Shown: positions 38,745 to 57,088 of the stretch, piece after piece
How positions within the stretch are numbered: the stretch's first letter is position 1
Layout of the letters: each line of letters opens with the position of its first letter
NCBI GenBank assembly: GCA_014905635.1
Contig: JABVCE010000005.1
Span: forward strand, 372,001-436,000
Source of the DNA: Scenedesmus sp. PABB004
Lineage: Eukaryota
Direction of reading: 5' to 3'
DNA length: 64,000 nucleotides
Position numbers and translations under genes: made by a program
Notes under the pieces: model-generated
What the model was told of the DNA's origin: nothing
What the model saw: only the letters and a program-made list of their open reading frames with translations
Database searches by the model: none

Positions 38745-40574
38745 ATGGCCGCCCTGGCCAACAAGAGCGCCCTGGTCGCGCGCCCCACGGTCAGGCCCTT
38801 CACGTCTCGCCGGGTGCGCGGGCGGCGACGTGCCGCGGCGCATTGGGTCGCCGCGAGCGCTGGCTCGGTCGCGGGGGACTGCGGACGCGCGGCGGCGCGG
38901 CAGCGCGCCTCGGGCGCTGCTGCTGTGCCCGCGAGCGCCACGCCGCGCGCAACAGGGGGCGCGCCGCGGGCCGGCCGCGCAATCACGCACGCGCCCAGCG
39001 TTGGCCGGCCCACTGCGCCACGCGCGCGGCCTGAGCCCCCGGCGCGGCGCGGACGCACCCGCAGGTGATGGCCGTGCGCGCGCAGGCGCTGAGCCAGGAC
39101 GAGCTCAAGAAGCAGGTGCGGGGCCTGATCCGGCGCCAGGCGCCGGCGCGGGCGCAATCAGGGGCGCTTGCGGCGAGCTGCGCGGGCAGCCGGCGCCGCG
39201 CAGCTGCAGCGCTGGCGCCGGCCGCCGCTCCGCGCGCTGCGGCGGCGGTCGGCGGCTGCCGCCGCAGTGCGCACCCCCTTGCCCTCCGGCGCACCTGCTG
39301 CGTCCCTGTCGCCGCCGCGCAGCGCGGCGCCTCTGCGGTGGCTCACGCCCGGGCGCCGGCCGCGCCCCCGCAGGCCGCCTGGAAGGCTGTCGAGTACGTC
39401 AAGAGCGGCATGGTCGTCGGCCTGGGCACCGGCTCCACCGCCGCCTTCGCGGGTGCGCCGCCCGCATCCGCCCGCATCCGCCCACGACCGCCCGCGCGCC
39501 CGCGGCCCCGTCGCCGCCGCCTCACGGTTGCCGCCTCATCACGGCTGCCGCCGCGCCGCCCCGCCGCACCAGTTGACCGCATCGGCCAGCTCATGAAGGA
39601 GGGCACCCTCACCAACATCATCGGCGTCCCCACCTCGGTGCGCACGTACGAGCAGGCCAAGGGCCTCGGCATCCCCCTCGCCACGCTCGACGAGCAGCCC
39701 AAGATCGACGTCGCGATCGACGGCGCGGACGAGGTCGACCCCAAGCTCGACGTGGTGCGCACACGCCGCCGCACCCGCCGCCGCTGTCGGCGGTGCGGCT
39801 GCCGTGGTGTGGGCGGTGGCGCCCGCGTGCCCCCCGGCGCGACCGCCGCCGCCGCCGCGGCGCGGCGCGCGCGCAGGTCAAGGGCCGCGGCGGCGCGCTG
39901 CTGCGCGAGAAGATGGTCGAGATGGCGAGCGCCAAGTTTGTGTGCATCGTCGACGACACCAAGCTCGTCGAGGGCCTCGGCGGCAGCAAGCTCGCGATGC
40001 CGGTGGAGATTGTGCAGTTCTGCCACAAGTACACGCTCGCGCGGTGAGAGAGGGAAAGGGCGCGCAGAGGGTCTCACGCAGCCCGCCAGCGCGCGCGCAG
40101 GCCCTGCTCGCTGTGCAGACGCCGCCCGGGGCGGGCACGGCCTCACGCCCGCGCCCCGCCGCGCGGCCGCAGGCTGGCGGCGCTGCCGGAGGTCGCGGGC
40201 TGCGAGGCCAAGCTGCGCATGGAGGGCGACAAGCCTTACGTGACCGACAACTCCAACTTCATCGTCGACCTCTACTTCCAGGTGGGGCGCCCCGCGCAGG
40301 CACAGCGCGGCACGCAGCGTGGTGGGGCCCGCGGCGGCGCGCAGAGCGGCGCGTGCTCTCACGTGCTCGCACGCGCCCAAGGCCGCGCGCTCACGCGCGC
40401 GGCGCGCGGCGCCGCCGCCCGTGCGGCGCGCAGACGCCGATCACGGACTCGCACGCGGCGAGCAAGGCGATCCTGGCGCTGGAGGGCGTGGTGGACCACG
40501 GGCTGTTCCTGGACATGGTCGACGTCTGCATCATCGCCGGCACGACCGGCGTGGAGGTCAAGGAGCGCAAGTGA
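38745..40574 (+). CDS. RPI1: Ribose-5-phosphate isomerase A, chloroplast, 7 exons
   Basis: Transit peptide, then SQDELKKQAAWKAV, GLGTGSTA, DGADEVD, KGRGGALLREK, PYVTDNSNFIVD and GVVDHGLF. Confidence 0.97.
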
Positions 40575-42715: not shown

Positions 42716-44604
42716 ATGTCGTCGGTGGACATCGACCCGGGCTGGTACGAGGGCCAGCCTGAGACGTTCGAGCCAGACGCCGCGCCGGCCGGCGAGCCGC
42801 GCGCCGGCGCGGCAGTCGACGCGTCGCACGTGCCGACCGGTGCGGGCGCGGGCGCGGCCGCAGCGCGCCGGCCGCAGCGCGCCGGACGCGGCCGCTCACG
42901 ACGGCTGCGCCGCGCGCCGCAGTGCTCACCAAGCTGCGCAAGTGGGGGGACTATGCGGCGTTTGGCGAGCCGGTCGCGCCCTCGCGCTTCATCCCGATGT
43001 GCGGGCGCCGTGCGCAGGCCCGGGGCAGCGGCGGCGCGCCCGCCGAGCGCCGAGCGCCGAGCGCCGCGCCGCCCCCGCGCGCAGGAAGACGCCGCTCAGC
43101 ACAGACATCCTCGGCAGCTGGCAGCTCCCCGAGCCGCCCGCGCACTCGCTGACCGTGCGCGACCTGCTGGCGGCGCAGGCGGCCGCGGGGCGGCGCGTGG
43201 GGCTGGTGCTCGACCTGTCCAACCACGACTGCCTCTACACCGACGACATCCCACACGGCACGCGCCGCGCCGCGCCGCCGCCGCAGCGCCCGCACCGCGC
43301 GGGCGCGCTCGCCGGCGGCGGCGCACGACCCGCCGCGCGGCCCCACCGCGCCGGCGGCGCGCAACACCCGCCGCGACACCCGCCGCGCCGCAGACGTGCG
43401 CTACATCCACGTCCAGCTCGTCGCCAAGGAGCTGCCGCCGCGTGAGTTTGTGGCCGAGGTCGCCGCCGCGGCGCGCGCGTTCTGGGCCGAGTCGCCGGGC
43501 GAGTTCATCGCCGTGCACTGCGCGTACGGGTTCAACCGCACCGGCTTTGTGGTGTGCAGCTACCTGATCGAGCACTGCGGCCTGAGCGTGGACGAGGCGC
43601 TCGCGTCGTTTGCCGCGTCGCGGCCGCCGGGCGTGAAGCACGAGCGCTTCCGCGACGAGCTGCGCGCGCGCTACGGCGGCGGCGGCGGGCTGGGCCTGCC
43701 GCCGCTGCCGCCGCACGCGGCGCACGCGGCCGCGGGGCAGCAGCCGCCGGCGGACGCGTGCGGGCGGCAGCAGCCGCCGCCGCAGGGGCGGTGCGCCCGG
43801 TGCAGCAGCCCGCGGTGCGGCGGCGGCGGCGGCGGCTGCCAGCCGGCGGCTGACGGCGGGCAGCAGCAGCCTGCGGCGGGCGCGTGCGACGGCGGCGCGG
43901 CCGGCGGCGGCAGCAAAGGCCTGCCGCCGCCGGGGCCGCCGGCGCGCGGCCCCAGCGACGCGGCGGCGCGCGCGGCGATGGAGGGCAGCCCGCTGCCCCG
44001 CCTGCCGGCGCGCTGCTACTCGTCCGGCTCGGTCGGCGACAACAGCAGCATCGGCTGCAGCCCCGACCGCGACGGAGGCCTGGAGCTCATGCGCGGCGGG
44101 CGGGCGGGCTCGCCGCACGCGGCGCCGGCGGCGCGGCCGCAGGCGGAGCAGGCGCAGGCGCGCGAGCCGCCGCGCGGCGAGGCGCCCGAGTCGGGGTGCG
44201 GCGCGGACGAGGAGGAGGATTGCTTCACTCTGGAGCTCGGCAGCTCGGCGGGCGGCGGCGGCGGCTGCGACGGCCGCGCGTGCTGCGAGCAGCGGCTGGG
44301 CGACGCCGCAGAGCTGTCGCGCCTGGTGCAGGCGGTGCAGCAGCAGCGGCAGCTGGGCGGCCCCGCCGCGGCGGCGGCGCCGTCGCCGTCGCTCGCGGCC
44401 TGCCCCTGCGCCTGCCACAACGGCGCCACCGGCCGCGCGAGCAGCGACGACGGCGCGCAGGCGCCGCGGCTCAGCAGCGACTCGGGGCTCGGCCTCGGCC
44501 CCGGGCGCGACGCGCTGGAGAACGAGAGCTTCGGCAACAGCGTGGAGCTGCTCGACAGCCTGCGGCGCCTGCGCCACGCGAGCCCCGCCGACGGCGGCGC
44601 GTAG
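42716..44604 (+). CDS. Cysteine-based RNA 5'-phosphatase, DUSP11/PIR1-like (capping-enzyme triphosphatase fold, no guanylyltransferase), 4 exons
   Basis: RFIPMKTPL, GLVLDLSN, IAVHCAYGFNRTGFVVCSYL (CX5R motif) and FAASRPPGV, followed only by a low-complexity tail. Confidence 0.85.
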
Positions 44605-45031
44605 CGCGTGGAGAGGGGCAACCGGCGCGTGACCCAGGGCTTGCCGCGCGAAGAAGCGCCGCGCCGCCCGCGCCCGCCGCTACTCCAGCCGCCGCCCGCC
44701 TTGGGCCGCCCACCTTTCTCCGCCGCAGCAGCCCGTCCCCGGCGCCTGCTCCAGCGCGTGCTGCCGAGATCGCGAGCAGCAACAGCCGGAACGCCGCCAA
44801 GAGCGCAGGTGCGGGCGCAAAGCGAACCCGACGCTGGTGCCGTCGCCGGCGGGCTCGGCGCGGCGTGGCAGAGCGCGCGCCACGCTGGGGGTCGCGCAAC
44901 ATCGCGCCGACCGGCACCCCGCCCAGACCGCGGCGCGCATTGGCCGATCCTGGGCACCACCGGTCCTCTTAGTTGCCCTGCACTCAACGCGCCCCCGCCG
45001 GCCCCGTCCGGCCGCGCAGGGACGCCGCGAG

Positions 45032-46824
45032 ATGAAGGCGCAGCGCCAGCTCGCTGCCCGGGGCGCTGCCCGGCCCCTGCCTCGCCACGCAGCGCCGGTC
45101 CGCCCCGCGGGCGCGCCCCGCGGCGCACCGCGCGTGACGGCAGCGGCCAGCCGCGACGGCCAGGTGCGGCGGCGCGGCGCGCGCGGCGGCGCACGCCGGG
45201 GCGCGCGCCGAGCCGCGCCCGCCCGCCCGCGCCGCAGGAGCTCGCCCGCCGCGAGCTGCTGGCGGCGGTGGGCCTGCTGGGCGGCCTGGGCGCGGCCCAG
45301 GCGGCGCAGGCGGCCGACCCGTACGAGGAGCTGCGCAGCATCGCCGCGCAGCGCTCGGGCGGGAGCGGGTCGCTGCTGGACCAGTTTGATGCCACGCGCG
45401 GCCTCACCTCGGCGGGCAAGGCCGACCGCGGCATCCGCTCCAAGCTCGCGGCGGAGGCGTCCAACGCGCCCAAGGCGGCGGGCGGCTTCCGCTTCGGCGG
45501 CGGCGCCGCGTCGCCCAAGCCCGCGTCGCTGAGCCCGCGGGCCGCGCCCGCGGCGCCGGCGGCCAAGCCCTTCAGCCTGTTTGGCTCGGGCGGGCCCAAG
45601 CCCGCCGCCGCCAACGTGGCGGCCAAGCCCAAGGCGCCCGCCGCGCCCGCCGCGCCCAAGCCCGCGGGCGGCGCCGGCGGCGCCGTGCCGGCCCTCCCCG
45701 GCGGCCTGCTGGGCCCCATCGGCCAGGCCGCGGGCGTGCTGGGCCTGGTGGGCGTCGGCGCGAGCGTGGTGACCTCCGCCGCGACGAGCAACCGCAAGAA
45801 GGCCCGCAAGGGCGCGCCCGCCGCGCCGGCGGCGCCGTCGCCGGCGCCCGCGGCGTCGCCGGCGCCCGCCGCGCCCGCGACGCGCAAGGTGTCCGCCGGC
45901 GGCACCGGCCGCGTCGCCACGCCCGCGCCGCGCGCGCCGTCGGCGGCGGGCTCCCGCCCGGCCACGCCCGCCACGCGCAAGATCGTGAGCAAGGTGCCGG
46001 CCAAGGCCGGCGCCGTGTCGGGCGGCACGGTGAAGGACACGATCAAGCAGGCCCTGGTGAACGAGGACAACCCGAATGAGCCCACCGACTTTGCGGTCGC
46101 GGGGTGGCTGGGCTTTGCCGGCGTGCTCGCCGCATTCTTCCTCTTTGCCCTCCCCGCGCCCATCCCGAGCGGCGGCCCCGCCGAGGGCGGGCGGAGCGCC
46201 GACCCGCTCGTCGAGGCGGCGCGCGAGGCGGCCGTGACGCGCGGCGCGGCGAGCTACACGACGCCGCTGTTCAAGGCCGCGGGCGAGCCGAGCGAGCCGG
46301 AGCGCAGGACCATCGCCGCGACCAAGGCCGCGCCGGCGCCCGCCGCGGCGCCGGCGCCGGCGCCCGCCAAGCCCGCCGCGGCGCCCAAGCCCGCCGCGGC
46401 GCCTGAGGCGCCCGCGCCGGCCAAGGCGGCGCTGCAGGCGCGCGCGCCCGCGCCGGCGCCCGCGCCCGCGGCGCCCGCGCCCGCGGCGCCCAAGGCGGCG
46501 GCCCCCAAGGCGGCGGCGCCCGCGGCGGCCGCGGCCGCGGAGGGCGCCGCGCCCGCCAACCCGCTGCTGCTGCTCGGCGGCGGCCTGGCGGTGATCGTCG
46601 GCGCGATCGCGGTGGCCGGCGGCAACAAGGAGGGCGAGGCCGGCAGCGCAGCCGCCGGCGGCGCCGCCGCGGCACCCGCGGCGCCCGCGCCGGCGGCCGA
46701 CGCGACCGCCGCGGCCGCGGCGGCGAGCGCGGCCGTGGTTGAGACGGTCAACGCTGCCGCCTCGGCGTCCGGCGCGTCTGCGCCGGCCGAGGGCGCCGCC
46801 AACGGTGAGAGCGCGCAGCCCTGA
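45032..46824 (+). CDS. Uncharacterised Pro/Ala/Lys-rich thylakoid membrane protein, short isoform (572 aa)
   Basis: Exons 45032-45163 and 45238-46824. Transit peptide plus twin-Arg domain LARRELLAAVGLLGGLGAAQAAQA and three hydrophobic segments. TGTAA at 47280. Confidence 0.75.
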
Positions 46825-47279
46825 GGCGGGTGGCGCGCGGCAGCGAAGGGATGGGGGGGGGGGGGGCAGCAAACCCTGGGCTCGCCGCTGGCCCGCCCGC
46901 ACTTGGAGGGCTGCAGCCGGGACCGCCGAGTTTTGCTGTGCGCAATGCATCTGTCGGCGCGCGCGTGGGCGCTGCAGGCGCGCGTGCGTGCGCCGCCACA
47001 CCAGCGAGCCTGCCCGCAGGAGAGCAGCACTGAAATGGCCGCCGGCAGCGCCCGCCCGCGCTCGCTCGTGCGGAGCGCACTGCGGCGGCCAGTTTTGCGC
47101 GCGCGCAGCCGCGGCGTGGTGGTGGTGGTGTCGTGTTGTGTTGTGGACGCCGGCGCGCGCGGTGCAGCGGGCGCGGCTGCGAGCCCCGGGCTGGGCATGT
47201 GTGCTGGGGCCCTGCTCCTCCCCCGGGCGGCTGCAGGCCCCTGCCACACTGCCTGGCACGAGGCTTGCAGCCCGCCCGC

Positions 47280-47284
47280 TGTAA
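47280..47284 (+). terminator. Poly(A) signal TGTAA inside the putative alternative intron 46805-47454
   Basis: About 455 nt after the short-isoform stop, in UTR-like, T-richer sequence. Confidence 0.65.
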
Positions 47285-47454
47285 CACGCCGCCGCGTCTC
47301 CGTCGTCGTCCGCGCGCTCCCGCGCGGCACGCACCCACGCACGCGGCCGGCAGCACGCGGGGCGTGGTCGGGCGGGTGCGCTCGCCGTCTCGCGCTCCCG
47401 CTGCCCCCGGCCTCTGACATCCGCCCCGCTCTCACCCGCGCCGCCGCCACGCAG

Positions 47455-48186
47455 CCGCCGCCGCGCAGCCAGCGGCGGCCGACCTCGACCCGGGTGCGCA
47501 CGCCGCGCCCGCGCGCGGGGCGTCAGCACTGCTGTGGCGGCGGCGCATGGGGCCGGCGCGCCGGCTCCCCGGCGGCGCCGCCCGGGCGGCGCCGCCGCGA
47601 GCTCACGCCCGCCTGCGCGCCGCCCCGCCCCGCCCGCCCGCGCGCGCGCGCGCGCCCCGGCAGAGCGGCTGCGCAGCGTGTTTGAGGCGCTGCTGGCCAA
47701 CCCCGCGTCGCGCCAGCTCATGCGCAAGCTGCTCGACGGCGCGGGCATGGCGTTTGACGAGGCCGCGTTTGAGGAGCAGATCGCGGACAAGACCTACTTC
47801 TCCCTCGCCATCGCGCCCGTGCTGCGCCGCATGCCGCCGCAGAAGCTCGCGGTGCTCGCGGGCCTGCAGGTGCGCGCCGCGCCGCGCCGCGCCGCGCCGC
47901 GCCGCGCCGCGCCGCGCCGCGCCGCGCGCCCGCGCGGCACGCCACGGGCGCCGCGCAGCGCCCGACGCCGCCCGCGCGCCCGGGCGCGGCGGCGCAGGAC
48001 CCCGCCAAGCTGGACGAGCTCGTGCGCAGCGTCGCCGCGCTCGCCGCCGACGGCGGGCAGCTGGACGCGGTGACCGCGGAGCTGAGCGGCGACGTGCGCA
48101 ACACGGTGGAGAAGATTCGCGAGGGCGACCCGCTCGCCTCGGCCGGCGAGGAGGCGGGCGCGGCAGCGGGCGGCGAGAGCCGGTGA
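47455..48186 (+). CDS. Downstream coding exons (47455-47493, 47664-47869, 47998-48186), probably the alternative C-terminus of the 45032 gene
   Basis: They encode ordered helical sequence DLDPERLRSVFEALLANPASRQLMRKLL..LQDPAKLDELVRSV. An in-frame TGA at 47415 precedes them with no ATG, and the phase matches the donor at 46805. Confidence 0.7.
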
Positions 48187-48763
48187 GCTGCTTGCCTGTG
48201 GGTTGTTTGGTGTGCGGAGCGAGGGCTGGGACGCCCCCGCTGTGCGTGTCCGAGGGAGTGAGCGGCGGCGCGCGCCGATGTGATTGGCCTGCAGCCAGCC
48301 GCCGCTGCGCTCCGCTCCGGCCGCGCAGCCGCCGCCCGGAGGCAGGTGGCGCTGCAGCGATGGGTTTCTTTGACCGCGCGCCCGCGTTGGCCGGCAAAAC
48401 CCCGGCGGTCGAGCAGCAGCAAGCGCGACCAGGTCGGGCCTGACGCGCCCACAGCACGAGCAGGCGCGGAGCTGGCCGCCTCTTGCTCCCCACGCCCCAC
48501 CTCAGCCTTCCAAACCACGCGCGGAGCCCGCATCACGCCGGGCGCGCGCGAGTGACACCGGCCGCGTGCTGCCGCCCGCCACCCCCCCAGCCCGCCCACC
48601 CCACCGCGGCGGCCGCGTCCGTGCACGCAACGTCTCGAACCGAACGACGCGCCGGCTGCTGCGGCCTGCGGGCGACGTCAGCGCACGCGCGCGTCTGACA
48701 ACGGCCTGCAGCGCAGCCAGGATCCACGGGGCGCGCTGGCGCCGGCCAGCCGCCGTCGTGTCG

Positions 48764-50669
48764 ATGGTTCGACCTGCTGCGCTGCTCCGTGGGGCCGGCG
48801 CGGCCGCGGCGCTGCTGCTGCTGCTGCTGCTCGCCCCGACCGCGCGCGGCCACGGCATGGTGAGCGGCGCCCGCCGCTCCGCCCTGGGCCGAGGACGGGC
48901 GGACGCGCATGCGCCGGCCGTCGTGGCCGCCGCGGCCGCCGGCAGCCGCGCCGGTGACGCCGCCGTTTTTTACTGCTGCGCGCCGGGTGACCCGGTGTGT
49001 GCCGCCGCGCAGATCATCAAGCCCATGGCCCGCAACTACATGTCGTTCAAGTTTGACCCCATGGAGGTGCGCTCCTGGAGCCCGTCCGAGTGCAACGGCG
49101 GCGGCCCGAAGGTCGTGTCCGCCGGCCACACGCTGCAGTGGCCCGCGGGCCGGTTTGACCTCTGCGGCGAGGCGGCGAACAAGACGGCCAAGCGCTGGAA
49201 CTTTGCGCGCGAGCCGTCGGGTGCGCGGCGCGGCGGCGAGCGCGGCGCGGCGGCGCGCGGCAGGGCGGCGAGCGCGGCGCGGCGGCGCGCGGCAGGGCGG
49301 CGAGCGCGGCGGCGCGCGGCAGAGGCGCTCGCGTGCGGCCGCCGACGTGCCCGCGCCCCGCGCACGCGGCGCAGAGACGTACACGAGCGGGCAGGTCATC
49401 CAGGTGCACCAGCTGATCACGGCCAACCACGAGGGCCGCATGATCATGCGCGTCTGCCCCCTCAACGCGACGGCGGAGAACTACGACGCCGTCTGCACCA
49501 AGCTGCCCAGGTGCGGCCGCACGGGGGAGCGGCCGCCTGGCGGCAGCGCGGCGGCGGCTGAAGCACGGCGCCCCGCCGCGCGCCGCGCGGCGCGCCCACG
49601 CCCCGCCCCCGCCGGCCGCAGGGCGGGCTGCACGGGGCCGCACTGCGTGCACTGGACGCTGCCGCCGGGGCGGGGGCTCGACCGCAAGAAGCGCCCGCTG
49701 CTGCCCGGCTATACCGACAAGACCTTCACCTGGTACGTGCACGACAGCGCCGACGACTTTGACGGCGTGCCGACGTACGTCGTCAGCTACCAGCTGCCCC
49801 AGGGCTTTGCCTGCGAGCACTGCATCCTGCACTGGTACTGGCTCACCGGCAACACGTGCAACCCCGCGTGCGACGCGTCCGACCCGCTCTACCCCAACTG
49901 CGACCGCAACCGCATGGGCTACTGCGGCGAGAGCACGCGGCCGGAGAAGTACCCCGAGGAGTTTTGGAGCTGCAGCGACATCCGCATCGCCCTGGGCAGC
50001 GGTGGCGGCAGCAGCGCCAGCGGCGGCGGCAGCGGCAGCGGCGGCGGCAGCGGGAGCGGCGGCAGCAGCGGGAGCGGCGGCGGGGCGCGCGCCGCGGCAG
50101 CCGTGGCCGCACCCGCGTCGCCGCCACCGCCGTCGCAGCAGCAGGCGCAGCAGGCGCAGCAGGCGCAGCAGGCGCAGCAGACGCGGACGGCTGCATCGCA
50201 GTCCGGCAGCACGGCAGGGAGCCCCCCGCCGGCGGCGTCCTGGAGCGCGCCCTCGCCGCCGCCGGCGGCGTCCTGGAGCGCGCCGTCACCACCGCCGGCG
50301 GCGTCCTGGAGCGCGCCGTCGCCGCCGCCACCGGCGTCCTGGAGCGCGCCATCACCACCACCGGCGTCCTGGAGCGCGCCGTCGCCGCCACCGGCGGCGT
50401 CCTGGAGCGCGCCGTCACCACCGCCGCCGGCGTCCTGGAGCGCGCCCTCGCCGCCGCCGGCGGCGTCCTGGAGCGCGCCGTCACCACCGCCGCCGGCGTC
50501 CTGGAGCGCGCCGTCGCCGCCACCACCGGCGTCCTGGAGCGCGCCGTCGCCGCCACCGGCGTCCTGGAGCGCGCCGTCGCCGCCGCCGCCGGCGTCCTGG
50601 AGCGCGCCGTCGCCGCCGCCGGCCGCCTGGACTGCGCCGCCGCCGCCGCCGCCACCGCCGTCGGCATGA
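48764..50669 (+). CDS. Secreted lytic polysaccharide monooxygenase (AA15/AA10-like) with extensin-like tail, 4 exons
   Basis: Signal peptide ends ARG|H (His1 codon at 48851). Motifs HGMIIKPMARN, TANHEG (second His), LPQGFACEHCILHWYWLTGN and PEEFWSCSDI. Confidence 0.88.
50220..50640 (+). repeat. Coding tandem repeat of 30/33-bp units encoding SPPP(P/A)ASWSAP x12 plus one degenerate unit
   Basis: The core CGGCGTCCTGGAGCGCGCC is repeated in frame with synonymous variation. Confidence 0.95.
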
Positions 50670-51674
50670 TCACTGATCACGACCCGGCGGCTGGTGAGCT
50701 GGGCCGGCGCCCGGCGCCGGTGGCAGCACCCGCGCTGGTGCCAGGCTTGTCGGCCTCCCAGCTGCGCAGCGGCCTGCGCGGGCGATTCTATGTGCCAGTG
50801 AGTGATTACTGAGAGCGAGAGACACAGCCGACCCACAACAGTCGTTGCGCAGGCGGGCCAGCACCCGTCGTCGTCGCCACATCTCTTTGCAGACAGACTG
50901 ACAGACAGACTTGAACCTCGCGCCACGGCACCACCGCCGCGAGTGCGGGCGCACCAGGCAGCTGGCAGGCGCATGGCGCCACCACCACCCCTGGCACCCA
51001 GGCGCCAACCGAAGAAGGGACCTCTTGTCGATTCGCTGCCGGCGCGCACCCGGTATCGTGGGCGTTGGTTTTGACCGTGCGTGGCGACTCGGCGACTGCG
51101 CCCGCAACGCACGCGCGTGCTGCCCGGCTCTTGCCGGCAGGGCGTCGTGGAGGGCGGCGCGTGGGTGGCCGGCGTTGGTAGGCAGCAGCACTGCTGAGGG
51201 GCGCCGCACCTCGACACGCGGGTGCGCGCGCGGGGGTAGCAAGACTAGTGCGGCTGGTGACAGCGCGCACGCAGACGTGCGTGCCACAGTCTCAGCCCGT
51301 GAGCGTCCGACCCACCTGACTGCAGCGGCACACAGCGGTGTGTGCGGGCGGGCGTGGGCCTCAGCCTTCCAGGCTAGCCAATAAACGTGCGGGCGGGAGG
51401 CCCTCAGTGGTGGCCTCGGAACGGGGGACATGACCCACTCACCCGGGCGGCGGTGGCGGGTGACTGGGGGCGATGGGGGCGGGGGGCACCCGGTCCTTGC
51501 TGGGGCGGCGGTGGCGGCGGTAACACCCCGCGGCGCGGGTCTGGTGTTTCAATGCCGACCAAGCCTTGATCACAGTCAACAGGCCCCCGTATGGACACGC
51601 GGCGGCGCCCCGTGCCAGCCCAGCACCCCCCGCCCAACCCAGCCCGGGCGCCGCCACCGGCGCCTCGCGGCGCC

Positions 51675-53736
51675 TCACTGCGCCTCGACCTCGGCCGCGG
51701 CGCCGTGCGGCGGCGCGGGCGCGCCCTGCGCGCCGGCCTTGCGCGTGATGACGCCGGCGCGCATGCTCACGCTGTCGGCGAGCTGCATGAGCGCCAGGTG
51801 CAGCTGCGCGGGCGTCGCCGGCCGCAGCGCCGGCTCGGGCCCGCCGCCGCCGCCGCCGCCGGCCTGCTGGCGCTGCTTCTGCTCGTTGTAGGCCGCCGTG
51901 TACGCGGCGTGCAGCTCCGCGACGCTCACCGACGGCCGCGACTTGGTCAGCAGGTCTGCGCCGCGGCGCGGGGCGCGGCGCGGGCGGCGCGCGGCGCGTG
52001 GGCGGCCGGCGCGGAGCGGAGCTGCGGGCGGCCGCGCCGCCGCCGCCACCGCGCGCGTGCGGAGCCCGCGCGGGGCCCGCGGCCGCCCCGCCCAGCACGC
52101 GGCGGCGCACCGTCGAGCAGGCCGCGCAGGAAGGCCGGCAGCGCCTCGCTGAGGAATGTGCGCGTCGCGCTGCTGCCGCCGCCGGTGAGCAGGTTCATAT
52201 CGAGGCGGCCCTCCTCGTCCGCGGCGGCCACGCTCAGCGCGTCGTGCCACAGGCGGTACGCGGACCGCACGTCCTCCTCCGTCACCTGACGCGGCGCGCG
52301 GCGCGGTCAGCGCGGTCAGCGCGGCGCGCCCAGCGCGCGCGGCGCGGGCGCGTGCGCGCGGGCGGCGCGGGCGGCAGCGCGCGGGCGGCGGCGCGTGGGC
52401 GGCGGCGCGCGGCGCGGCGGCGCGCGGCGCGGCGGCGGCGCGCACCGTGTCGCGCAGGTGCATGCGCGCGAGGGCCTCGCTGATGCGTATCATCGCCTCC
52501 AGCTGGCGCGGCGTGGCCGACACGCGGCCCGCCTGCGGCGCGCGGCGCGGGCCCCCGCGTGAGCGGGCGTTCCTGCGGAGCGCCGCGCCTGCGGGACGCC
52601 ACGCCGCGCAGCGCTGCGCGGCGCACCCCCTCGTTGCGGCAGGAGCGGCGCAGCTCCTTGTAGCCCTCGATGAGCCGCGCCTCGGCCTCGGGCGCAAAGC
52701 TCGGCTTGACGCGCGCGCGCGCAAAGGCGATGAAGTCGCGCAGCTCCGACGCCGAGTAGGGCTGCGCGGGAGGGGGCGGCGCCAGCGCACGGCGTTGAGA
52801 GGCCGCGGCGCGGGCGCGGGCGCGAGCAACGGCGCGGGCGACGGCGCGGCGCACCGGCTGCGTGCTGGCGGGCACGTCGCGCCAGAAGAGGCTGATGAGG
52901 TGCTTTGCGAGGCGGCGGTCCTTGTCGGCGTCGCGGTTGTCCAGCACCTGCGGGGGGCGCGACGGCGGCGGCATTGCGCCGGCGTGCGCAGCGGCCCTGG
53001 TGCGCACACACAGCACGCACAGCACGCACAGCATGCACGCACACGGAGCACACAGAGCGCACAGAGCACACAGAGCACACACAGCACGCACCAGGTACAC
53101 GAGGTCAAAGCGGCTCAGCAGCGTGGGCGGCAGGTTGATGTTCTCAGCCAGCGTCAGCTCAGGCAGGTAGCTGCGGGCGCGGCGCGGCGCGGCACGGCGC
53201 GGCGGGGTGGGTGAGCGCGTTCGGGCCGGGGCGGGCGGCCGCTGGCTGGCGGCGGCGGCGGCGCACCGCGAGCCCTTGGGGTTGGCGCACGCGAGGATGG
53301 ACGTGCGCGCGTTGAGCTGGCTCACCAGGCCCGCCTTGGCCACCGACACGGTCTGCTGCTCCATCACCTGCGGCGGCGCGGCGCGGTGCGGCGCCCCGCG
53401 TGCTCTCGGCGCCCGCGCTGGCCCAGGCCAGACCGCGCGACCGCGGCCCCGCCGGGCGGATCTCTCGCCGCATCCGCGCCCCCTGCGCCCGCGCCACCGC
53501 GCGCCGCGCAGCGCCGCCGGGGCGCGCCGCACCTCGTGCAGCATCGCGCGCGCGCCGTCGCTCATCTTGTCAAACTCGTCGATGCAGCAGATTCCGCGGT
53601 CGCTCAGCACGAGCGCGCCGCTCTCGAGGACCATCTCGTTGGTCTCCGGGTCGCGCGTCACGTACGCGGTCAGGCCCACCGCGCTGCTGCCCTTGCCGCT
53701 CGTGTAGATGCCTGGGTTCAGGCGGCGGCCGGTCGC

Positions 53737-53806
<70 letters not shown>

Positions 53807-54886
53807 GTGGGTGCGCAGGAGGTGGGCGGCGACGCGTGCGCGCGAGCGGCGCGCGAGCGCGGCGGCGGGGTGCGGCGGGGCGCGGCGCGGCGGCGGCGCA
53901 CCGCGCGGCGCGACGTGGTGCACGAAGCCCAGCAGCTGCGACTTGGACACGCTGGGGTCGCCGACGACGAGGACGTTGATGTCGCCGCGGATGCCGCCCT
54001 TGCTGCTGCCGCCCGCGCTGTGCGGCGGCGGGTGCGGGCGCGGCCGCGGGCGCGGTGAGCCACGGGGCAGCACGGGAGCGTGTGGCCGTGTGCGTCCGTG
54101 CGCTGCGCGGCGCGGCGCCGCGCACGTGCTGGTCGAGTCGCCGCCGAGCGCGGCCGCGGTCGACTTGCTGACGCCGCCGAAGAGCTGGCAGAGCAGGCCC
54201 TTCTTGACGCTGTCCATGTCGATCACGCGCGGCGCGCAGCTCGCGATGAGCTTGGAAAAGTGCTCCGGGTCGGCCGCCATCGCCTGCCGCGGGCGGCGCG
54301 GCGCGGCGTGGGCGGGCGCGCGGCGTGCGCGCGCGCGTGCGCGGTGGTGGTGGTGGTGATGGTATGAACCCCGGGGCAGGCAGGCGCGCGCCTCACCCGG
54401 AAGCGCGCCTCCTTCTCCGCCAGCTCCGCGCGGCTCACGTTGCCGCCGGCAACGCCCTCGCCGCCCTGCGTTTGCGACGGCTCCGTGCCGAGGCCCTCCT
54501 GCGGCGCCGGCGCCGGCGGCGGCGGTGGCGTGGGCCACGCGCGCAGCTCTGCCACCTCGCCCACGCACACACGGCTCGCCGCCGCCGCCGCCACCGGCAT
54601 TGCCGCCGCCGCCGCCGCCGCACCTGGCTGTTTGCGCCGGCGGGGCCGCGGCGCGCGTACGCGCGCTCGCTGTCGTCCTTGGCCACGTGGACCACGTCCA
54701 GGTAGGTCTTGAACAGCGCGTGCGCGGCGCGCTGCCGCGGGTTGAGGCGCAGCCGCGTCGCGCGGAAGATGCCTGCGGGGCGCCGCGGCGCAGCCGGCGG
54801 CGGCACAGGTCACGCGCAGCGCAGCGCGGCGCCGGCGGCGGTGGCCGGGCGAGGGCTGGACGCACGGCGCGGCGCGCGCGCGGCAT

Positions 54887-54928
<42 letters not shown>

Positions 54929-56602
54929 CCAGCGGCGGGAGCAGGGCCTGTGGGCGGCGCACCGGTGATGGTGACCTTGTCGCCGGGCTTGGCGGCGTCG
55001 ACGTTGGTGTCAAACGCGTACATCAGCAGCGAGCGCGGCGTCTCGCCCTCGGGGATGTTGGAGGGGTCCTCCTGCATCTTCACCACCTGCGCAGCCAGCC
55101 GGCGGCGCGGCGCGGCGCGGAGGAGGGTGGGCGGGTGGGCGCCGCGGCCGGCGCGCGCGCGGCGCCCAGCAGCCACGGGCCCGCCGCGGCTGCCGCAGCC
55201 CCGCCCGGGCCCCAGCGCCAGCCGCGGCCCGCGGCTCCCACGCGGCCGCGCCTGGCGGTTGAGGAAACCGCAGCGGTTGGGCACCATGCGCAGCGTCGCC
55301 TTGGCGCCGCAGCCGCCGCACGCGCCGGGGACGCTCACGACGCCGCGGTCGACGATGTCGGACGCCTCGGCGCCGCACGACTCGCAGCGGAACACCGCCA
55401 GCCTGCGCGGCGCGCGCGCCGCGGTGTGAGGCCCCGCGCGGCGCCACGCCGCCCGCGCGCCGCCCGCGCGCTGCCGGCGCCGCCCTCCTCCTCACTCACC
55501 GCAGGTCTGGGATGATGCCGCCCGTGCGCGTGACCATGCCGCGCACGCTGACGAGGCTGTCGATGTCAATCGGGTCCAGGTCGCGGATCGCGCGCACGCT
55601 GTCCAGGTTGAACAGCCGCACCTGCAGGCGGCGCGGCGGCAGGCGGCGGCGGTGGCGCGCGCTCGGCGCCGCGCCGCCGCCGCGAGCGCGGCGGCCGGGG
55701 CCCCCCTGCACGGCTGCGACAGCAGCGCCGCGGCCCCGCGCCCCCGCGCCGCGCCTGCAGCTTGTCGTTGGGCGCGTCGAGCCCGAGCTCCGCGAGAAGG
55801 TCTGCCTGCTCGCCCGCGAGCGCGTTGACCGCATCGTCCCAGATGAGCATCATGTCCTCGGGGCTCTCCACGCTCGCCGCGAGCAGGCGCGGGCTGCTCG
55901 CCTTGACGTGCGCCGCGTCGACGTTGAGGCTGCTCACGCCGTCGCCGAGCACCTGCGTCGCGCGGCACGCGGCGCGGCCGCGGCGGCGCGCGCGGGCGGC
56001 GGGCGGCGTCACGGGCGGGCGTCACGGGCGGGCGGGGGCGGCGGCGCGCGTGCGCTGAGGCGTGCGCTGCGGCGGCGGAAGCGGCGCGCGCCTGGCGCAG
56101 GATGGCCACGTAGGTCGGCAGGCCGCCGCCGGGCTGGCTGGGCTCGACCTCGCCGCTCGCGGCCGCAGCCGGCGGCGCGGCGTGAAAGGTGGTGAGGAAG
56201 CGGCGCACCGCCGCCGCCATCTCGGCGTGCGTGTAGGTGGTGCCCCAGATGCGCCGCGTGGCGTCGAGGTCGGTGTCGGCCTGCGCGGGCGGCGCCGGCG
56301 GCGGCGTGTCGGTGTGACAGGCACGTCGGTGTGCACGCAGGCGCGCGGGCGTGCAGGCGTGGCGGCCGCCCGCCTCTGCGCCGTGGGCGCGGTGCGCTCG
56401 CCGCCGCGCGCTCACCGCCGAGGGAATGTAGCTGCTCGCGCGGCTGCGCATGCCGCCCACGCGCCCGGGCGTGCGCGCGACGCTGTCGGGCGCCATGCCG
56501 GGCGTGGGCAGCAGCCCGCTCGTGCCGCCGGGCGTGGCGCTCGGCAGCGGCGCGGCATCGCCGTTCTCGTTCGCGCCGGCGTCCGCCATGTCGTCGTCGC
56601 TG

Positions 56603-56641
<39 letters not shown>

Positions 56642-57088
56642 GCGGCGGCGGGCGCGCGGCGCGCGGCGCGGCGGGCGCCGCGCGCGGGCCGGCCGCTCGC
56701 CGCCTCCTTGTCGGTCGCGCCGGTCGCCTGCGAGTCCAGCATGGGCAGGTCCTCGTCCTGCACGTTGGAGGGGATGCTCGACAGCGGCGCCGACGCGCGG
56801 CGGCCTGCGGACGGCGGGGGCGGGGCGCGCGTGGGCCGTGCTCGCGGCCCGCGCGCTGGCGGCGCGGACCGCGCAGCGCGCGGCGCTCACCGCCGCTCCT
56901 GCCCCGGCCGGTGCTCTTCGCGCTGGCCGGCGAGAAGGGGGCGGAGGCGTCTGGCGCGGCGCGGGGGCGCGTGAGGGCGGCGCTGCGGCGGGGCGAGCGC
57001 CGCGAGCAGCGCGCAAGCACCGCCGCTGCCGCGCCCGCCGCTCACCGCCGGTGCGCCGCGTGGCGGGCGTGCCCTGGCTGTCGGCCAT
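51675..57088 (-). CDS. MCM4: DNA replication licensing factor MCM4, about 20 exons
   Basis: Zinc finger CESC..CGGC, MQEDPSNIPEGETP, RGDINVLVVGDPSVSKSQLL, YTSGKGSSAVGLTAYVTRDPET..LESGALVLSDRGICCIDEFDKM, LPPTLLSRFDL and ATPRQLE; S/TP-rich N-terminus. Confidence 0.95.
53738..53803 (+). repeat. (CGG)22 microsatellite in an MCM4 intron
   Basis: Read directly from the sequence. Confidence 0.9.
54888..54926 (+). repeat. (CAG)13 microsatellite in an MCM4 intron
   Basis: Read directly from the sequence. Confidence 0.9.

Follow-up and report, generated by a model that had tools for sequence, protein, structure and literature searches.

Does a single gene of a green alga supply two forms of a photosynthetic membrane protein, one with and one without a helical C-terminal domain, depending on whether an intron is spliced out or a stop codon and a poly(A) signal inside it are used? 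The question is raised by a locus in a window of 64,000 nt, the whole stretch of DNA that was analysed (Scenedesmus sp. PABB004, GCA_014905635.1, contig JABVCE010000005.1, positions 372,001-436,000, forward strand). The host genome is eukaryotic and intron-rich, with a size of 40 Mb and a GC content of approximately 79%. By resemblance of their translations, the neighbouring genes presumably encode a ribose-5-phosphate isomerase (38745-40574), a dual-specificity phosphatase (42716-44604), a secreted, Cys-rich, chitin-binding-like protein with Ser-Pro repeats (48762-50801) and an MCM helicase subunit (51675-57088). An Rfam search of 44600-48800 gave no match.

The spliced form joins five exons (132 + 1567 + 39 + 206 + 189 = 2133 nt) and encodes 710 aa with a single stop. 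Unspliced reading through the donor at 46805 yields 572 aa. The features of the gene, in window coordinates, are as follows.

45032-45163, + strand: exon 1, with the start codon ATG 45032 (translation, gene model)
45238-46804, + strand: exon 2, part common to both forms, with an Ala/Pro-rich body and three hydrophobic spans (translation, hydropathy, gene model)
46805-46810, + strand: phase-1 donor G/GTGAGA within the last codons of the short form (48th percentile)
46805-46824, + strand: tail of the short form and its stop, TGA 46822-46824
46825-47300, + strand: putative 3' UTR of the short form; in the long form, this is the 5' portion of intron 2 (composition)
47280-47284, + strand: TGTAA (in TGTAAC), candidate poly(A) signal 456 nt past the stop
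47414-47454, + strand: branch-site candidates CTGAC 47414 and CTCAC 47431, with a phase-1 acceptor (49th percentile)
47455-47493, + strand: exon 3, 39 nt, an Ala-rich linker with the start of the conserved domain at its end
47664-47869, + strand: exon 4, five-helix core of the C-terminal domain (predicted structure, homologs)
47998-48186, + strand: exon 5, the last one or more helices, followed by the long-form tail and stop

The preliminary description of this DNA had placed the start codon, the short-form stop, the donor, TGTAA, CTGAC and the acceptor (AG ending at 47454) at these very positions, and its phase match between donor and acceptor and its 710-aa frame with one stop were reproduced. 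As in a composite terminal exon, the donor at 46805 and the acceptor at 47454 are both credible and both in phase 1, and TGA 46822 past the donor is accompanied by an intronic TGTAA at 47280. Donor 46805 is the best GT site in 45240-47455 and of median strength. At the other end of the gene, the long-form stop overlaps a donor-like GTGAG (48183-48190, 50th percentile), which is probably just the stop because homologs end nearby.

A two-strand gene HMM was self-trained, without supervision, on 664 kb of the same genome. Its counts are estimates, since long introns are penalised and UTRs have no state of their own. Unprompted, the HMM recovered every exon boundary of the locus except donor 46805. 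There it closed the gene at 46824 and assigned a spurious 4-nt first exon at 47197 to the exons downstream. The long parse scored 10 log units below the split parse in this model, which holds no state for a UTR inside an intron. The 650-nt intron 2, earlier described as unusually long, indeed exceeds all 1366 other predicted introns (median 125 nt, maximum 480 nt, long introns being under-called). With the score of this site as threshold, 3 of 205 predicted terminal exons have a donor of such quality 3-30 nt ahead of the stop. Two further same-strand pairs may have been split by the HMM at long introns, near 343689 on the + strand (G000:C46) and near 606502 on the - strand (G000:C2); they have gaps of 565 and 672 nt and a donor near the stop, and lack TGTAA, which makes them useful as controls.

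These results bear on a plain alternative, namely that intron 2 is merely long and constitutively spliced. The 710-aa protein would then be the sole product made in any quantity, with the stop, TGTAA and composition as cryptic signals or coincidence. The normal strength of donor 46805 suits this explanation, as does the under-calling of long introns, of which the two other candidate splits may be examples and which biases the intron control set used below.

The long form is the better documented product. Searches with exon 4 found five homologs in one case and 21 in another, most of them single-exon fragments; P0024 and P0028, among the 21 matches, were set aside as chance hits to repeat proteins. 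The homologs with a named source, from Chromochloris zofingiensis and Flechtneria rotunda, indicate a chlorophyte green alga. Two homologs, P0015 (571 aa) and P0038 (572 aa), are each encoded by one ORF (the contigs measure 15 and 51 kb) and carry a transit-like N-terminus, a hydrophobic A-x-A signal, spans, the motif preceding span 2 and the C-terminal domain. A check of orthologue structures had been proposed, and in both proteins the sequence from signal to C-terminal domain forms one ORF without an intron at the intron-2 site. In P0016, span 3 and the domain share one uninterrupted ORF. The junction of exons 3 and 4 is crossed continuously by homologs. Against P0015 and P0038, the domain scored 238 and 244 (maxima of window-shuffled controls, 68 and 62) and the motif before span 2 scored 86 and 67 (shuffle maxima, 55 and 46), while two lumenal segments and span 3 did not score above the shuffled controls. 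No homolog of residues 245-355 of exon 2 was found at E<=1 among 2051 candidates. The ESM Atlas returned only leads below 0.9, with unnamed Chlorophyta clusters for exon 2 and nothing useful for the domain. A metagenome scan with the domain alignment produced 600 pattern matches, none of which was confirmed. A domain search of the alga's own genome detected no second copy, and as far as this search goes the locus appears to be single-copy.

Two observations concern the architecture of the family. In P0015, the segments corresponding to spans 1 and 3 (residues 159-172 and 407-425) resemble each other, which suggests growth by repetition of a linker-plus-span module. A conserved segment of 13 residues precedes the domain linker in the N-terminal parts of several relatives (P0005, P0006, P0029 and P0030), Chromochloris among them; it apparently lies at an exon start, loosely resembles domain helix 2, and is absent from the focal gene, P0015, P0016 and P0038.

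Coding selection extends upstream of ATG 47720, in exon 4. The 18 codons before ATG 47720 have a GC3 of 0.94 and score +10 in frame vs -18 in the other frames. Compared with L011, a 1292-nt contig of 57% GC that came from a degenerate motif scan and does not extend as far as the upstream exon, they show nine synonymous and three non-synonymous differences. These patterns show selection at the protein level ahead of ATG 47720, so translation must begin further upstream. An independent downstream gene starting at ATG 47720, which the preliminary description had named among the cases that would overturn it, would discard these 18 conserved, coding-biased codons. The spliced 710-aa form is, on the evidence of its homologs, the conserved and ancestral one.

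The wider form of that alternative is gene fission: the upstream gene would always end at 46824, and a downstream gene with a promoter near 47300 would start at ATG 47720, 47035 or 47197. The HMM splits the locus in this manner, and an annotation of Chromochloris from the 2017 era contains the domain as a lone gene model. A donor at 47376 inside intron 2 (score 5.35, 43rd percentile) comes close to 46805 in strength and, if spliced to the acceptor at 47454, would leave an intron of typical size (79 nt). However, the frame joined by 47376 contains no ATG, so use of this donor would do no more than alter a read-through UTR or a 5' UTR. It had been claimed that the downstream exons have no upstream ATG of their own. 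The in-frame TGA 47415 stands, being in frame with exon 3, but ATGs do occur in the intron at 46851, 46945, 47035 and 47197. Two intronic ATGs are able to join the downstream exons in frame and both score as non-coding, the first exons from 47035 and 47197 reaching -9 and -25. A start at 47720 would drop helix 1 together with the 18 codons, and the phase-matched donor 46805 is rare at such a position (3/205). Uninterrupted homologs and selected codons before 47720 make a separate downstream gene unlikely, and fission of the gene is regarded as very improbable. In a polycistronic locus, the downstream ORF is complete, has its own start codon and shares the mRNA. A locus of the type reported in PMC7896298 was rejected, as none of the start codons available to the downstream exons takes in their conserved coding part.

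The case for the short form rests on its putative 3' end. TGTAA at 47280 is the sole + strand occurrence in 44.5-49.2 kb, and shuffles of the intron gave a chance occurrence of 0.8-3.9%. The 664 kb contain 71 TGTAA, 41 of them after a sense stop (114 kb) and four in sense introns (188 kb), including this site; the others lie in sense CDS (5), antisense to CDS (16), antisense to an intron (1) or elsewhere between genes (4). The motif is thus approximately 22-fold denser after stops than in introns, and behaves as a poly(A) signal in this genome. All six other TGTAA of the window are found 7-356 nt after a predicted sense stop, and none of the 15 longest predicted introns contains one. A stop starting within 18 nt of the donor occurs in 2.4% of 327 phase-1 introns. 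On a cross-validated UTR-vs-intron score (AUC 0.89), 46825-47300 reached 0.041, a value attained by 2 of 33 introns of at least 300 nt, and 47300-47444 fell to -0.019. The earlier claim of a 3'UTR-like composition thus held, with a region above 31 of 33 long introns and a drop after TGTAA; this switch is generic in part, because UTR-likeness in introns of this genome is generally higher towards the 5' end than towards the 3' end. The locus was picked after the fact for these features. TGTAA follows the stop within 600 nt in 33 of 203 predicted genes (16-18%). The long-form stop itself is followed by none in 48187-48770, the sole one-mismatch variant being TGTGA at 48279. For Chlamydomonas, PMC4701671 reports UGUAA at a distance of 10-20 nt upstream of 58% of 3'-UTR sites; the far lower share in this alga means that it may use other signals. 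By analogy with Chlamydomonas, cleavage would occur approximately 10-20 nt after TGTAA, at about 47295-47305.

On the contig L011, a phase-1 acceptor precedes the same linker and a TGTAA lies upstream of it, with two more TGTAA in the next intron. By eye, L011:319-362 is a possible small Ala-rich exon (phase-2 acceptor to phase-1 donor) that starts at TGTAA. The upstream TGTAA was rejected as a conserved signal, given the 57% GC of the contig, the two additional copies and its possible position in the small exon.

Taken against the 664 kb, the putative internal 3' end looks non-random, and a real one is supported statistically. Constitutive splicing would have to accept the coincidence of three partly independent rare features (0.8-3.9%, 2.4%, 2/33) and a TGTAA where 0 of the 15 longest predicted introns has one. 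In its favour, every full-length homolog found has the domain. It is considered unlikely, while deserving to be kept in view. According to another alternative, both RNAs exist and the short one is leaky noise or tunes the gene down through an unstable protein or RNA, without being the message of a second functional protein. The tail at 46805-46821 scores -1.2 and has no coding signal, and the short form was not seen in the relatives found, P0015 and P0038 having no intron there. Against such leakage or attenuation, noise would not need 460 nt of UTR-like sequence that includes the poly(A) motif of this very genome, and the short protein would retain all targeting signals and spans; this explanation appears hardly probable. 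Of the two isoforms originally proposed, the 710-aa form is well supported by uninterrupted homologs and codon selection; the internal 3' end, from which the 572-aa product would follow, is supported statistically.

Composition and hydropathy fit the bipartite presequence and spans of a nucleus-encoded thylakoid membrane protein. The segments of the protein are the following.

Exon 1, + strand: transit-peptide-like N-terminus, residues 1-44, with 9 K+R vs 1 D+E (composition)
45238-45318, + strand: thylakoid-transfer-like signal, residues 45-71, with twin Arg, hydrophobic stretch and A-x-A (translation)
45718-45774, + strand: predicted span 1, residues 205-223, weak (hydropathy)
46003-46095, + strand: conserved motif before span 2 (residues 300-330); no other tested N-terminal segment was clearly above shuffles
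46096-46152, + strand: predicted span 2, residues 331-349 (hydropathy)
46564-46620, + strand: predicted span 3, residues 487-505 (hydropathy)

Residues 45-71 are what we take to be a thylakoid-transfer-like signal; the corresponding hydrophobic A-x-A signals of P0015 and P0038 have no twin Arg. The loop after span 1 contains 16 K+R vs 5 D+E. Counting spans from a lumen-targeting signal, we infer a lumenal N-terminus, a basic stromal loop after span 1 and a stromal C-terminus. With a weak span 1 and a non-basic segment (1 K+R vs 5 D+E) following span 3, the domain may instead be lumenal. The product is probably an uncharacterised thylakoid membrane protein; it may conceivably correspond to Chlamydomonas TEF10.

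The C-terminal extension had been described as a helical domain of approximately 145 aa with STI1/DP-like motifs. Its size was correct in that 144 residues replace six, but the conserved domain comprises only about 113 aa (residues 580-692). AlphaFold2 predicted five short helices for exon 4 (pLDDT 84, pTM 0.61) and, when the whole domain was modelled, one more helix, a long one (pLDDT 78, pTM 0.45). The suggested fold and profile comparison thus yielded a five-helix model and no significant match. The best structural match to the domain model had a Z of 3.7 and an rmsd of 4.7 over 57 aligned residues (model pTM 0.61). No significant match was obtained in PDB sequences or in four fold searches, and no STI1 structure appeared among the fold matches. 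Pfam gave no match for P0002 and P0003 (E<=1) or for P0030, P0015, P0016 and P0038 (E<=10). The STI1/DP domain (PF17830), a fold of five to six helices around a hydrophobic groove, is known from HOP and Tic40-type proteins, and the likeness consists of short helices with Asn-Pro and Asp-Pro turns. A genome-wide PF17830 search retrieved three other loci and not this one, and comparison of the domain with these STI1 domains gave a profile probability of 1.7% over 14 columns, using shallow profiles of eight and three rows. The label was not upheld: the domain should apparently not be filed as STI1, while a binding role is possible. On its sequence, it is a helical chlorophyte family without a Pfam or PDB match.

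In Chromochloris zofingiensis, the gene model Cz01g46130 (142 aa) consists of the same C-terminal domain alone and is 69% identical over exon 4; it occurs in no main text of the literature searched. It is absent from the 2021 table in supplement file 6 of PMC7896298, where the neighbour Cz01g46120 is predicted as chloroplast-targeted and scored C. Expression of Cz01g46130 vs Cz01g46120 was 56-69 vs 62-68, and both fell to approximately 1-4 under salt, in supplement file 12 of PMC7161124. The supplement of PMC11258321 lists the Cz01g46120 protein as 'lowest in TAG', in a row without name, function or a Chlamydomonas or Arabidopsis ortholog. If Cz01g46120 is the ortholog, as we infer, equal expression fits one transcript with little internal termination and a dominant long form. 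The equal co-expression of the two halves and the disappearance of the 142-aa model, as if merged, also speak for constitutive splicing.

Competition between splicing and intronic polyadenylation at a composite terminal exon, giving membrane proteins with and without the domain, is the reading favoured here with moderate confidence. As the homologs show, the gene ancestrally encodes a chloroplast and probably thylakoid protein with a transit peptide, a lumen-targeting signal, Ala/Pro-rich linkers, up to three spans and the helical C-terminal domain of approximately 113 aa. In this alga, the intron after span 3 also holds a stop, a putative 3' UTR of about 460 nt and the TGTAA signal. Where splicing of 46804 to 47455 comes first, the 710-aa protein would result. 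Where cleavage at about 47295-47305 wins, the 572-aa protein would be made, with the same targeting and spans and without the C-terminal domain. The protein may be a non-catalytic scaffold or spacer of photosynthetic membranes, in which the domain, missing from the short form, would serve to bind other proteins. A scaffold or spacer with a binding domain is the most likely role, as judged from the anatomy and, faintly, from the Chromochloris neighbour. A more far-reaching version is doubtful, in which light or stress regulates the choice between splicing and intronic polyadenylation and thereby switches the helical domain on a chlorophyte thylakoid scaffold, as a recent addition to an ancestral single-product gene that is possibly part-way to fission.

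Intronic polyadenylation at a composite terminal exon operates in IgM. Flt1/sFlt1 likewise shows a donor in the alternative last exon, a stop soon after it and a poly(A) signal in a long intron. Unlike the focal gene as proposed here, Flt1/sFlt1 and IgM yield secreted vs membrane forms. PMC9434269 describes spinach and tobacco APXII, with its stromal and thylakoid ascorbate peroxidase isoforms. The C-terminus of this chloroplast protein depends on splicing and on the poly(A) site chosen, and in one variant (sAPX-II) a stop is reached seven residues into an intron. The likeness lies in a nuclear gene for a chloroplast protein whose C-terminus is decided by 3'-terminal splicing and alternative polyadenylation. 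In APXII, however, alternative acceptors are used and the membrane anchor of an enzyme is added or removed; in the focal gene all spans would be kept, a soluble domain added or removed, and the donor itself used or read through. Intronic poly(A) sites of Chlamydomonas make up less than 1% and lack UGUAA in the available part of PMC4701671, while approximately 35% of intronic sites carried UGUAA in EST/454 data of another study. Chlamydomonas introns that contain poly(A) sites have greater lengths (PMC4025486, available part). None of the literature searched dealt with this gene, or with a thylakoid protein of these algae whose mRNA is polyadenylated within an intron. The locus probably represents a known kind of RNA processing, newly laid on an uncharacterised chlorophyte protein of the thylakoid type.

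Protein-changing poly(A) choices are reported to be rare in Chlamydomonas (PMC4701671), so a clean green-algal case would serve as a model of the competition between splicing and 3'-end formation under UGUAA. The proposed arrangement also accounts for the splitting of this gene by gene finders. Should the long form prove to be the sole product, what is left is a corrected annotation and a family of uncharacterised thylakoid proteins. The locus marks out a chlorophyte protein family so far unannotated, whose helical domain is without a match in Pfam or PDB, and if both forms are made, it would offer a natural comparison of the protein with and without this domain.
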